64,000 nucleotides of DNA from an uncultured Acidobacteriota bacterium (GTDB taxonomy: Bacteria > Acidobacteriota > JAAYUB01), in assembly GCA_964412195.1 (NCBI GenBank), contig CAYPNP010000002.1, positions 361,308 through 425,307 on the forward strand, read 5' to 3'. Positions within the stretch are counted from its first letter, which is position 1. Each line of letters starts with the position of its first letter. A program made the translations under genes and the position numbers. The notes below the pieces were generated by a model. The model worked only from the letters and a program-made list of their open reading frames with translations. It was not told where the DNA came from and did no database searches. Shown piece by piece: positions 58,648 through 61,370 of the stretch.

Positions 58648-58956
58648 ATGAGCGATTCGATGGAAGCCTTGGGCATGATCGAGACCCGCGGATTCACCGC
58701 CATGGTGGAAGCCGCCGACGCGATGGTCAAGGCCGCCAAGGTCACGCTGGTGGGTTACGAGAAAACCGGCGGCGGGCTCAACACCGCCATCGTGCGCGGC
58801 GACGTGGCCGCGGTCAAGGCCGCCACCGACGCCGGCGCCGCAGCCGCCCGGAAGGTGGGCGAGCTGATCGCCGTCCATGTCATCCCCAGGCCGCACGCCA
58901 ACCTGGACGAGGTCCTGCCCATCGTCCCCCGCGATAAGGCCAAGGCCAAAGCCTGA
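58648..58956 (+). CDS. bacterial microcompartment shell protein, BMC-H (PduA/EutM/CcmK type, Pfam00936-like)
   Basis: [54 protein letters not shown]...VHVIPRPH is the canonical BMC-H sequence. GGAGGAG RBS. Confidence 0.85.
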
Positions 58957-59009
58957 CCGGAGGGCCGCGCCCCGGCCCCCGCCGGGGCGCCCGCCTCCAG
59001 GAAGCCGCC

Positions 59010-59279
59010 ATGATCATCGGCAAAGTCCGCGGCACCGTGGTCGCCACCCGCAAGGATCCCAAGCTCGAAGGGAAAAAACTCCTGATCGTGGAGAAAATCA
59101 ACCCGGCCGACGGGTCCTCCGGCGGATACGTCATCGCCGTCGACACGGTCGGCGCCGGCGCGGGAGAGACGGTCCTGTGCGTCAGCGGCTCGTCCGCCCG
59201 GCTGTCTCACGGCATGAAGGACCATCCCGTGGACACGGCCATCATCGGCATCATCGACACCATCCAGTTCAACCCGTAG
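59010..59279 (+). CDS. bacterial microcompartment vertex protein, BMC-P (EutN/PduN/CcmL family)
   Basis: MIIGKVRGTVVATRK...LLIVEK...VIAVDTVGAGAGETVL is a BMC pentamer family sequence of the expected 89 aa. Confidence 0.85.
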   Translation: MIIGKVRGTVVATRKDPKLEGKKLLIVEKINPADGSSGGYVIAVDTVGAGAGETVLCVSGSSARLSHGMKDHPVDTAIIGIIDTIQFNP

Positions 59280-59289
59280 GGCCCCGCCC

Positions 59290-60639
59290 GTGCCCCCCCC
59301 GAAACGGATTCCCCCGGCTTACAGCACCCTGGTGGACGCGGTGCGCGCCGCCGGCGTCGTCGGCATGGGCGGAGCGGGCTTCCCGACCCACCTGAAACTC
59401 CGGCCCCGGCTCGAGACCGTGATCATCAACGGGGCGGAGTGCGAGCCGCTGCTGGCCTGCGACCGGCACCTCCTCCAGCGCCACGCCCCGCTGGTCCTGG
59501 ACGGCGCCGCGCGGGTCGCCGCCGCCACGGGCGCCGGGGAAGTCGTCCTGGCGGTGAAGAAAAAGAACCGCGAATTGGCGGAAACCTTCGCCTCCCTCAC
59601 CTCCTCGATTCCGCTCCGGACCGTCCTGATGGACGACGTCTACCCTTCCGGCGACGAGTTCTTCGTGGTGCGGGACGCCTGCGGGAAAGCCCTGCCTCCC
59701 GGCGCCATCCCGGTGGACCATGGCATCCTCGTCGGCAACGCCGCGACCTTCAAGGCGGTCAGCGACGCCTGCGCCGGCGTCCCGTTAACCCGCCGCTTCG
59801 TCAGCGTCTGCGGCGCCGTCCACCGGCCCGTCACGCTGGAGGTCCCCGTCGGCGCCGCTTTTCACGAGCTGATCGCCGCCGCCGGCGGCCTGTCCGTCCC
59901 GGAGGCCGCGCTGTTGGAAGGCGGCGTGCTCATGGGCGAGCTCGCCGTGCCGGACGGCGTGGTGAAGAAGACCACCGCGGCCGTGGTCGCCCTGCCGCCG
60001 GACCACCCGGCGGTGCTGGAACGGACCCGGCCCCTCAGCTACTCCGTCAAGCTCGCCGAACACAGCTGCTGCCAGTGCGTGAAGTGCACCGAGCTGTGCT
60101 CGCGCAACCTGCTCGGCCACGAGATCGAGCCCCACAAGGCCATGCGCCTGGTGGGCTCGGCCCGCGACTACCGCGAGCTGTCCATGCCGTCGCTGTGGCA
60201 GTGCTCCGGCTGCGGGCTCTGCTCGCTGGTCGCCTGCCCGTTCGACCTGGGCGTCCGGCGGTTGATCCTGGAAGCGAGGAAGGGGCTGCCCCGATCCGCG
60301 CCGCCATCGGAGGTCCCCCGGGAGAGGCCGGACGCGGGCCTGTTTCTGGTGCCCACCCGACGGCTGATCCGGCGGCTCCGGCTGGACACCTACGACCGGC
60401 CCCAGCCGTTCGGCGGGCCGCTCCCCGCGCCTGCCCTTCTCCGGATCCCCTGCAAGCAGCACGTCGGCGCTCCCGCCGTGCCGGTGGTGGCCGAGGGACA
60501 GGCGGTGCGGGCCGGCGACCTGCTGGCCGCGGCGCCCGACGGGGCCGTCGGCGCCCACGTCCATGCCCCCGCCGCCGGACGCGTGGCCTCGGTCGGCGCC
60601 GAGATCGTGATCGAGACCGGTGAATCGGTGAGTCGGTGA
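59290..60639 (+). CDS. RnfC/PduS-like flavo-iron-sulfur protein (BMC-associated electron-transfer subunit); GTG start, uncertain
   Basis: GMGGAGFPTHLKL (RnfC/complex I 51 kDa-type nucleotide-binding/SLBB region), two ferredoxin motifs (CCQCVKCTELCSRN and CSGCGLCSLVACP), and a C-terminal RnfC_N-like barrel domain (RIPCKQHVGAPAVPVVAEGQAVRAGDLLA). Confidence 0.75.
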   Translation: MPPPKRIPPAYSTLVDAVRAAGVVGMGGAGFPTHLKLRPRLETVIINGAECEPLLACDRHLLQRHAPLVLDGAARVAAATGAGEVVLAVKKKNRELAETFASLTSSIPLRTVLMDDVYPSGDEFFVVRDACGKALPPGAIPVDHGILVGNAATFKAVSDACAGVPLTRRFVSVCGAVHRPVTLEVPVGAAFHELIAAAGGLSVPEAALLEGGVLMGELAVPDGVVKKTTAAVVALPPDHPAVLERTRPLSYSVKLAEHSCCQCVKCTELCSRNLLGHEIEPHKAMRLVGSARDYRELSMPSLWQCSGCGLCSLVACPFDLGVRRLILEARKGLPRSAPPSEVPRERPDAGLFLVPTRRLIRRLRLDTYDRPQPFGGPLPAPALLRIPCKQHVGAPAVPVVAEGQAVRAGDLLAAAPDGAVGAHVHAPAAGRVASVGAEIVIETGESVSR

Positions 60640-60651
60640 ATCGGCAGCAAC

Positions 60652-60778
60652 AATTGCGAATTGCGGATTGCGGATTGCGGATTGAAAACCATTCGTGTGG
60701 TTGGTGTGGTTCGTGGTCCGATTGCGGATTGCGGATTGACTTCGATGTTCGATGTTCGATGTTCGATGTTCGATGTTC
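60652..60778. repeat. cluster of short tandem repeats in the intergenic gap inside the BMC operon
   Basis: Seen directly: (ATTGCGG/A)x4-5 at 60652-60684, GTGTGGTT x2, ATTGCGG x2.5 at 60721-60738, and (CGATGTT)x5 at 60743-60777. Confidence 0.75.
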
Positions 60779-60818
60779 GCTCTGTCCGTGATAGCATGGT
60801 TTCACAAGGAGCATCGTC

Positions 60819-61370
60819 ATGATTTCCCCCGCCATCGGCGCCCTCGAGTTCAACAGCATCGCCCGCGGCATCGAGGCTGCCGACGCCATGGTCAAGGCTG
60901 CCCAGGTGGAGCTGTTCGCCTCCAAAACCATCTGCCCCGGGAAGTACCTCTCGCTGTTGCACGGAGAGGTCTCCAGCGTGGCCGCCGCCATCGAGGCCGG
61001 CAAGGCGGTCGCCCGGGTGGCCCTCGTGGACGAGTTCGTCATCCCCAACGTCCACCCCCAGGTCTTCCCCGCCCTCACCGGCACCGCGACGCTCCATGAG
61101 ATGCTGGCTATCGGGGTGCTGGAAAGCTATTCCGCGCTGACCGGCATCCTGGCGGGCGACGCCGCCGCCAAGGCCGCCGCGGTGGACTTGATCGAGATCC
61201 GCCTGGCCAACGGGATCGGCGGCAAGGCGGTCCTGACCCTCACCGGCAACGTCGCCGACGTGGAGGCGGCCATCCGCGCCGGCGAGGCGGCCATCGCCCA
61301 CACCGGCCTGTTCGTCGCCGCCGTGGTCATCCCCGGCCCCCACGCCGACATCAAGAAGTTCCTGATCTGA
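60819..61370 (+). CDS. tandem-domain BMC-T shell protein, PduT-like (predicted 4Fe-4S-binding pore cysteine)
   Basis: Two BMC domains in 183 aa. N-terminus [43 protein letters not shown] closely parallels PduT, including the Cys in KTICPGK that ligates the Fe-S cluster in PduT. Confidence 0.8.
   Translation: MISPAIGALEFNSIARGIEAADAMVKAAQVELFASKTICPGKYLSLLHGEVSSVAAAIEAGKAVARVALVDEFVIPNVHPQVFPALTGTATLHEMLAIGVLESYSALTGILAGDAAAKAAAVDLIEIRLANGIGGKAVLTLTGNVADVEAAIRAGEAAIAHTGLFVAAVVIPGPHADIKKFLI

Follow-up and report, generated by a model that had tools for sequence, protein, structure and literature searches.

The PduS/PduT pair of bacterial microcompartments (BMCs), recently renamed MNdh/BMC-T^SE, oxidizes NADH inside the protein shell and delivers the electrons outward through three 4Fe-4S clusters (Sutter et al., PNAS 2024, PMC11626177). 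In the modeled line, FMN, the two MNdh clusters and the pore cluster stand 7-9 A apart; NADH-dependent reduction of the BMC-T cluster and lumenal location have been shown for the Clostridium botulinum pair only (PMC11626177). MNdh adjoins BMC-T^SE in 97% of loci, co-occurs almost exclusively with aldehyde dehydrogenase (AldDh), and is often encoded in satellite loci (18/20 in the PVM type and 5/7 in the ACI type) (PMC11626177). Here we characterize a compact operon encoding a BMC hexamer protein (BMC-H), a BMC pentamer protein (BMC-P), a PduS-like protein and a PduT-type trimer protein (BMC-T), an order abbreviated H-P-S-T, in a 64-kb stretch of contig CAYPNP010000002.1 (the window). With a probability of about 0.6, we read this operon as the shell and NAD+-recycling conduit of a dispersed (fragmented-type) metabolosome whose NADH-producing cargo is encoded elsewhere. 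The host belongs to an uncultured, probably anaerobic lineage of Acidobacteriota.

Shell loci that lack enzymes, and PduS/PduT pairs that lie away from enzymes, are catalogued for the FRAG1, FRAG6, FRAG7, ACI, HO and PVM types (PMC8217296 Supplementary Data 2; PMC11626177). PduS/PduT pairs are present in 24 of 57 FRAG1 loci and also in FRAG6, FRAG7, HO and ACI satellites (PMC8217296). FRAG shell genes are scattered over up to six sites and include a BMC-P triplet (green, grey and orange clades), often with no enzyme identifiable (PMC8217296). In the ACI type, the main locus combines a BMC-P triplet with a hydroxyacid dehydrogenase and a class II aldolase that bears an encapsulation peptide at its C-terminus (PMC8217296).

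The operon spans positions 58648-61370 of the window on the plus strand, with intergenic gaps of 53, 10 and 179 bp. Domains were called at Pfam gathering thresholds, and scores far above these bear out the four co-directional genes proposed in an earlier reading made from the sequence alone (the sequence-only reading). The features of the operon are as follows.

58576-58604, plus strand: sigma-70-like promoter match, TTGAAA-17-TACAAT (consensus scan, 10/12 matches)
58648-58956, plus strand: BMC-H, 102 aa (PF00936, 104 bits versus a cutoff of 24.5, 3.2e-30)
59010-59279, plus strand: BMC-P, 89 aa (PF03319 over its full length, 110 bits versus a cutoff of 25, 7.7e-32)
59290-60639, plus strand: PduS/RnfC-like protein, GTG start, 449 aa (Complex1_51K, SLBB, Fer4_17 and RnfC_N)
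60640-60818, no strand: 179-bp spacer between PduS and BMC-T with tandem repeats ATTGCGG x4.6, GATTGCG x2.7 and TTCGATG x5.6 (Tandem repeat finder)
60819-61370, plus strand: BMC-T, 183 aa (two PF00936 domains, 141 bits, 9.4e-42)

The operon encodes the shell gene set of at least one PF00936 hexamer protein and at least one PF03319 pentamer protein. BMC-H displays PRPH as its interface motif and KTGGG in the pore loop, and its C-terminal tail is short and basic. It shares ~76% identity with HO-5815, the shell hexamer of Haliangium ochraceum (PDB 5DJB), with EutM and PduA also close, and 89-94% with its orthologues in a clade of related loci described below (dN/dS ~0.05). Among solved structures, BMC-P comes nearest to its counterpart in the H. 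ochraceum shell (5V74, 48% identity), and its dN/dS within the clade is 0.04-0.18. BMC-H alone passes an NCBIfam equivalog threshold (EutM, 141.9 versus 133); none is reached by BMC-P, the PduS-like protein or BMC-T.

The PduS-like protein is composed of Complex1_51K (residues 18-158), SLBB (171-216), Fer4_17 (259-320) and, at the C-terminus, RnfC_N (378-440). RnfC structures (8AHX, 7ZC6 and 9ERI, E-values 2e-39 to 1.5e-37) match it in two stretches, with residues 376-437 aligning to RnfC 27-87 and residues 13-320 to RnfC 127-423. Thus, the protein is circularly permuted, with RnfC_N moved to the C-terminus, a rearrangement already described for PduS/MNdh (PMC11626177). A GMGGAGFPT motif for FMN/NADH and two four-cysteine motifs for two [4Fe-4S] clusters are present, and GxGGxGFP, CCQCxxCxxxCSR and CxGCGxCSLxACPF are invariant across seven PduS orthologues of the clade. 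The protein therefore unites PF01512, PF10531, a 4Fe-4S dicluster and PF13375 in the permuted order of MNdh/PduS, and the next gene downstream, 179 bp away, encodes a BMC-T with a pore cysteine. Its identity to the best PduS homologues in the genome database is ~40%. RnfC of the Rnf complex has the FMN/NADH domain, SLBB and two [4Fe-4S] clusters in common with the window protein, but this assignment was rejected on the basis of the permuted domains, a score of 214 versus 246 bits for NCBIfam rnfC, and the lack of rnfABDEG genes in the window.

BMC-T is a tandem PF00936 fusion of the PduT type, with the CP(G/S)K pore motif and its cluster-ligating cysteine. The sequence-only reading had placed a conserved pore cysteine in KTICPGK, and the alignment agrees: SKTICPGKYL, containing Cys39, aligns to SKTICPGKFL of Citrobacter PduT (PDB 3PAC). 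The same residue is numbered C38 in Salmonella PduT (PMC11626177). Full-length alignments were obtained with 3NWG (6e-52, 49% identity), Citrobacter PduT 3PAC (3e-43, 44%) and Salmonella PduT 3N79 (7e-41). The ICPGK motif is invariant across five BMC-T orthologues of the clade, which show dN/dS of 0.12-0.24. A [4Fe-4S] cluster ligated by Cys39 is predicted at the trimer axis, where three cysteines would converge. The score against NCBIfam eut_PduT (TIGR02526) falls short of equivalog level (140.8 versus 250.3 bits); judged by its sequence, BMC-T is a divergent PduT-type member and not an enteric PduT orthologue.

By analogy with the C. botulinum pair, from which both electron path and lumenal location are carried over, the products of the operon may cooperate in recycling NAD+. 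BMC-H hexamers would tile the facets of the shell and BMC-P pentamers would close its vertices, with MNdh docked on the inner face of the BMC-T trimer. MNdh would oxidize lumenal NADH at FMN and relay the electrons, by way of two [4Fe-4S] clusters of its own, to the cluster in the pore, from which they would leave for a cytosolic acceptor, and NAD+ would be regenerated inside the shell without an alcohol by-product. The cargo would most likely consist of an acylating aldehyde dehydrogenase and partner enzymes with encapsulation peptides, and further BMC-P paralogues may be encoded with it. An RnfC-like protein combined with an Fe-S BMC-T had been presented in the sequence-only reading as a hypothesized electron route; this route has since moved beyond hypothesis, having been biochemically characterized in 2024 (PMC11626177).

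PduS was first characterized as a corrin reductase that binds PduT (PMC2982820), and the module could be imagined as the cobalamin reductase of a B12-dependent propanediol or ethanolamine microcompartment. We regard this classical role as very unlikely here. Pfam detects no PduCDE, EutBC, PduO or other B12-dependent BMC enzyme in the window or the related loci; PduS/PduT pairs are also widespread in B12-independent BMC types, and NAD+ recycling is the better supported function (PMC11626177).

A protein search with PduS recovered a tight group at 51-76% identity, after which identity falls to ~44%. Named members of this group are labeled 'Acidobacteria bacterium' or 'Acidobacteriota bacterium'. 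Gene context was compared for the window and ten further members of this clade. The complete H-P-S-T block is found in nine contexts (the window, L085, L086, L090, L093, L099, L100, L179 and L181). Parts of the wider synteny of the window, ThiC ... rhomboid-H-P-S-T, recur in L090 and L181, the latter also with DUF1573-Lactamase_B-adenylosuccinate lyase downstream, which indicates that the block was vertically inherited; clade flanks are otherwise rearranged. Two genomes encode BMC-H, BMC-P and PduS with no BMC-T within reach: L087 (9310-11350, GCA_018001935.1) and L091 (9285-11338, GCA_964436005.1). All PduS cofactor motifs are kept in both. A 179-aa open reading frame (ORF) downstream in L087 was considered as a displaced BMC-T and discarded, as tblastn found no similarity. 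A HicA/HicB-like toxin-antitoxin pair follows PduS in L087.

Compared pairwise with three orthologues, each of the four genes falls within dN/dS 0.04-0.38; synonymous sites are close to saturated, and PduS proteins of the compared lineages are only 50-63% identical. Thus, the four genes are maintained by purifying selection. A scan of a genome collection with PduS returned relatives at no more than 40% identity, mostly in Firmicutes PDU/GRM-like loci together with true RnfC, and the clade was not among the species representatives returned. A metagenome scan added at least two further clade loci. At 43-44% identity, the two PduS lineages nearest to the clade from outside consist of bare PduS-PduT pairs, with neither shell genes nor enzyme genes in the surrounding 10 kb, and this isolation suggests that the lineage of the module habitually resides apart from cargo.

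These data also bear on whether the operon is what is left of a larger metabolosome locus in decay, stripped of its enzymes and no longer able to build a functional organelle. The gene order H-P-(AldDh)-PduS-PduT matches the 3' end of complete loci, including a metagenomic locus discussed below (L116) and many Firmicutes loci, the adjacent BMC-T has been lost in two relatives, and in the window genome PduS and BMC-T are set apart by a spacer full of repeats. Decay is nonetheless highly improbable, with four intact ORFs, invariant cofactor motifs, dN/dS in the range given above and a block kept in nine contexts.

Within the spacer, BMC-T has an AAGGAG ribosome-binding site ahead of its start codon, and the PduS-BMC-T distance in relatives ranges from a 4-bp overlap to ~260 bp. 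The spacer is the break point of public short-read assemblies of the same organism. The sigma-70-like site, a consensus match alone, lies 44 bp 5' of the BMC-H start codon and is the sole such site in 58300-61800. Short tandem arrays of ATTGCGG occur at three intergenic sites of the window (7306-7336; 29463-29476, minus strand; and 60653-60734), with 8 matches versus 0.02 expected by chance, and may represent a genome-wide dispersed intergenic repeat. The TTCGATG x5.6 array (60741-60779) sits beside the third of these sites, while a 41-bp unit repeated 2.7 times in tandem (29269-29373, 79% matches) sits beside another, just upstream of glyQ.

Cargo genes were sought over ~58 kb upstream and ~9 kb downstream of the operon in the window genome (~70 kb) and over ~20 kb (+-10 kb) in relatives. 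A Pfam scan of essentially all credible window ORFs revealed housekeeping functions only: DnaX, RecR, GH127, a four-subunit pyruvate:ferredoxin oxidoreductase (PFOR), LspA, DnaJ, MeaB, GlyQS, inositol-phosphate synthase, pyruvate phosphate dikinase (PPDK), MoaE, PyrD/F, ExbBD, RimM-TrmD-L19, RNase HII and ThiC. No ORF in the window matches the aldehyde dehydrogenase family PF00171 (Aldedh), and tblastn found neither a further BMC-domain gene nor a homologue of BMC-type AldDh, phosphotransacylase (PTAC) or RpiB in the 64 kb. A BMC AldDh used as query matched nothing in the window and nothing in 13 clade loci, yet it has a homologue in 57 other loci. The public contig L002, which overlaps the end of the window and runs past it, encodes an S8 protease, a hypothetical protein, DUF1573, Lactamase_B and adenylosuccinate lyase. 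Pfam detected no signature enzyme, PTAC or alcohol dehydrogenase in the window, the L002 extension or the related loci, and clade flanks are devoid of AldDh (within 10 kb), PTAC, aldolase, glycyl-radical enzyme and B12 enzyme. The absence of cargo in view described by the sequence-only reading therefore extends ~9 kb past the module, and neither there nor in the ten related contexts was a standard PDU, EUT or GRM set found. As in FRAG-type loci, the shell genes are remote from known enzymes.

The sequence-only reading further proposed that a metabolosome might serve metabolism based on PFOR, PPDK and methylmalonyl-CoA epimerase/MeaB. The Pfam scans confirm four-subunit PFOR, PPDK and MeaB, but the epimerase did not turn up in them. 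The proposed connection finds no support: these genes lie 22-48 kb from the operon amid housekeeping genes and are absent beside the module in relatives (inspected flanks of +-10 kb). They were rejected as linked metabolism and are uninformative about what the compartment does.

Given the labels of its closest homologues (Acidobacteria or Acidobacteriota bacterium), the operon might instead be a satellite of the Acidobacteria-specific ACI microcompartment, with the main locus elsewhere. PduS/PduT pairs do occupy ACI satellite positions (PMC8217296), as in the 5/7 occurrences cited above (PMC11626177). The first Acidobacteria entries listed for PduT in the catalogue are Solibacter ACI satellites of non-PduT type and a single PDU1D Acidobacterium, and they give no assignment for the present clade (PMC8217296). 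However, ACI loci are reported mainly from subdivisions 4 and 6, and their described satellites are S-T rather than H-P-S-T (PMC8217296). None of the ACI-defining genes (aldolase, hydroxyacid dehydrogenase, BMC-P triplet) is present in the window or related loci, and the window gene content, PFOR among it, may point to a different, anaerobic lineage. An ACI satellite is thus distinctly unlikely.

To place the layout among other PduS/PduT loci, we used 48 PduS loci in which a PduT-like gene adjoins PduS and each flank extends for 5 kb or more, a set picked by PduS similarity and hence not unbiased. AldDh lies in the locus (within 10 kb) in 38/39 non-clade loci with H and/or P near the pair, in 1/4 non-clade loci where the pair is bare of shell genes, and in 0/5 clade loci, which have both H and P. 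One metagenomic locus is particularly instructive.

L116, JGI contig Ga0180007_10001403, 6155-12304: hypothetical (363 aa)-PTAC-BMC-H-BMC-P-AldDh-PduS-PduT-RpiB

L116 is a compact SPU-like metabolosome whose 363-aa protein belongs to no Pfam family. It shares the order H-P-...-PduS-PduT with the window, and its BMC-H and BMC-P are 79% and 56% identical to the window proteins, the former being the highest BMC-H identity seen outside the clade. In contrast to the window locus, it has AldDh between P and PduS, as well as PTAC and RpiB, and its G+C content is 48% versus ~66% in the window. By gene order and protein similarity, L116 plausibly pictures the same operon with its enzymes in place, a comparison that implies no direction of evolution.

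The clade pattern can also be taken to mean that the four genes form a self-contained minimal microcompartment in which MNdh is the sole dedicated resident. Such a compartment might serve as an enclosed NADH:acceptor oxidoreductase or an electron-buffering particle, or might hold a non-AldDh producer of NADH recruited without a recognizable encapsulation peptide. H, P and T constitute a sufficient shell set in one operon with MNdh, and what is conserved across rearranged flanks is four genes and nothing larger. AldDh and PTAC are absent within 10 kb in every clade context versus AldDh in nearly all shell-linked loci elsewhere, and searches for encapsulation peptides in FRAG genomes found nothing (PMC8217296). 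Against this, MNdh requires NADH that is made or trapped inside; the pores of the shell are argued to be too narrow for cofactors to exchange efficiently, and MNdh is reported only in AldDh-containing BMC types (PMC11626177). An NADH oxidizer alone inside a shell has no evident benefit, the stretch shown to be free of cargo amounts to ~70 kb in one genome and 20 kb in the others, and two clade members lack the adjacent BMC-T. We consider a self-contained compartment rather unlikely. The bolder proposal, that the four genes, perhaps with the neighboring rhomboid gene, make up a complete organelle of a new type in a genome with no AldDh anywhere, housing MNdh alone or an unrecognized NADH-producing cargo, is unlikely.

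A dispersed metabolosome remains the reading we favor. Cargo is placed elsewhere because MNdh accompanies AldDh in the literature and because a compartment that only oxidizes NADH lacks a rationale. The HO-like character of BMC-H and BMC-P supports this placement, as HO splits BMC-P genes and enzymes between main and satellite loci, and so does L116, where the same gene order retains enzymes. Several observations pull the other way. The five clade loci in the comparison set, all without AldDh, are atypical beside shell-linked loci that have it in 38 of 39 cases, and in two clade genomes H-P-PduS stands without a BMC-T in its reach. Neither another BMC locus nor an AldDh from this genome came into view in the window and the ~9 kb downstream, and the window has one BMC-P versus the triplet typical of FRAG, ACI and HO. 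Finally, searches for encapsulation peptides in FRAG genomes came up empty (PMC8217296), so that cargo elsewhere is unestablished even for the nearest category on record. The sequence-only reading had left a choice between a satellite locus and an undescribed BMC type: a satellite serving distant cargo fits best, while 'undescribed type' was overstated, since enzyme-less loci are already catalogued.

The flanks of the operon are as the sequence-only reading described them, with a rhomboid protease and a TonB-dependent receptor upstream and an S8 protease downstream.

55719-57683, strand not given: TonB-dependent receptor, beyond the rhomboid gene and upstream of the operon
57724-58608, minus strand: rhomboid intramembrane protease (PF01694, 1.2e-34), divergent from the BMC operon
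61523-64000 of the window and 877-6138 of L002, downstream: S8 protease, 1753 aa, with PPC and PQQ-like beta-propeller domains

The rhomboid gene call is shorter in the matching public contig (~57724-58452). A rhomboid orthologue (58-64% identity) occupies the same divergent position in 8/8 H-P-S-T contexts with upstream sequence (the window, L085, L086, L090, L093, L099, L179 and L181), whereas genes on its far side differ among contexts. It is absent from both contexts that have only H-P-S (L087 and L091). The rhomboid is a conserved neighbor of the BMC operon, and we know of no link between rhomboids and microcompartments. A second rhomboid paralogue (39836-40630) is 35% identical. The S8 protease sits in sequence of falling G+C, which is 55% in the last 2 kb of the window versus ~65% elsewhere. 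At its position L181 encodes a PAS/GAF histidine kinase and a response regulator, followed by the same DUF1573-Lactamase_B-adenylosuccinate lyase genes, and the protease looks like a lineage-specific insertion. Its candidacy as cargo or partner was dismissed, since it is missing from every related locus, with other genes at that position.

Other genes adjoin the module in individual relatives. An ATPase of the ParA/MipZ/CbiA type directly follows BMC-T in L179 (12232-13098) and lies one gene further on in L085 (13163-14035) and L093 (9599-10474); it could be a McdA-like ATPase that positions compartments, and it has no counterpart beside the module in the window. In L090 only, a 56-aa 2x[4Fe-4S] ferredoxin is encoded directly after BMC-T (11972-12142, minus strand), a candidate cytosolic acceptor of electrons from the pore cluster. 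L181 has two cytochrome-like genes between the TonB receptor and the rhomboid (5499-8284), one with a weak Cytochrome_CBB3 match and the other with faint Cytochrome_C7 and MtrC/MtrF-type matches; both are absent from the window. Elsewhere in the window, a 721-aa ORF with no Pfam match (25751-27916) lies in the stretch of lowest G+C (~54%), and a bacterial small SRP RNA (5209-5304, RF00169, 50 bits) is the sole Rfam family at gathering score.

What enzyme-less FRAG-type shell loci enclose is a puzzle in the field, and the clade described here offers a compact example: a full shell set and an electron-export module in one operon, under selection in nine contexts, with two more lacking BMC-T. Should cargo be found genome-wide, the system would be an ordinary dispersed metabolosome, and MNdh/BMC-T^SE would be extended to anaerobic Acidobacteriota. 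If there is truly no cargo, the reported dependence of MNdh on AldDh fails and a new role of BMC shells would need explaining; interest would rise sharply only if complete genomes show cargo nowhere. For synthetic biology, the four small genes offer a handy minimal shell of natural origin, equipped with an electron conduit; their practical value today is that of a lead.

Among known systems, canonical metabolosomes (PDU, EUT, GRM and SPU) have AldDh, a signature enzyme, PTAC and/or alcohol dehydrogenase in the locus, none of which is present at the window locus. ACI shares with the window its phylum and a PduS/PduT pair apart from enzymes, but the satellites on record for it comprise S-T pairs, with H and P absent (PMC8217296). 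HO supplies the best solved relatives of both window shell proteins. HO type I distributes its components, BMC-P genes and enzymes included, over main and satellite loci and occasionally has a satellite PduS/PduT pair. The HO main locus, however, contains AldDh and BMC-T^dp proteins, and the HO BMC-T^S has no pore cysteine, unlike the window BMC-T. FRAG (Sutter et al. 2021, PMC8217296) resembles the window in its shell genes without cargo nearby, its PduS/PduT pair and its uncultured environmental hosts, among whose listed phyla Acidobacteria do not appear. FRAG genes are scattered and include a BMC-P triplet, whereas the window has a single P in one tight H-P-MNdh-T operon. MNdh/BMC-T^SE systems come almost exclusively with AldDh, which the window lacks nearby, and in the window a 179-bp repeat-filled spacer splits the pair; the same four-domain permuted flavo-Fe-S protein nevertheless stands beside a tandem CP(G/S)K BMC-T, motifs intact. 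Collectively, these comparisons indicate that components and mechanism are already known, and that only the compact AldDh-less H-P-S-T layout looks unusual.

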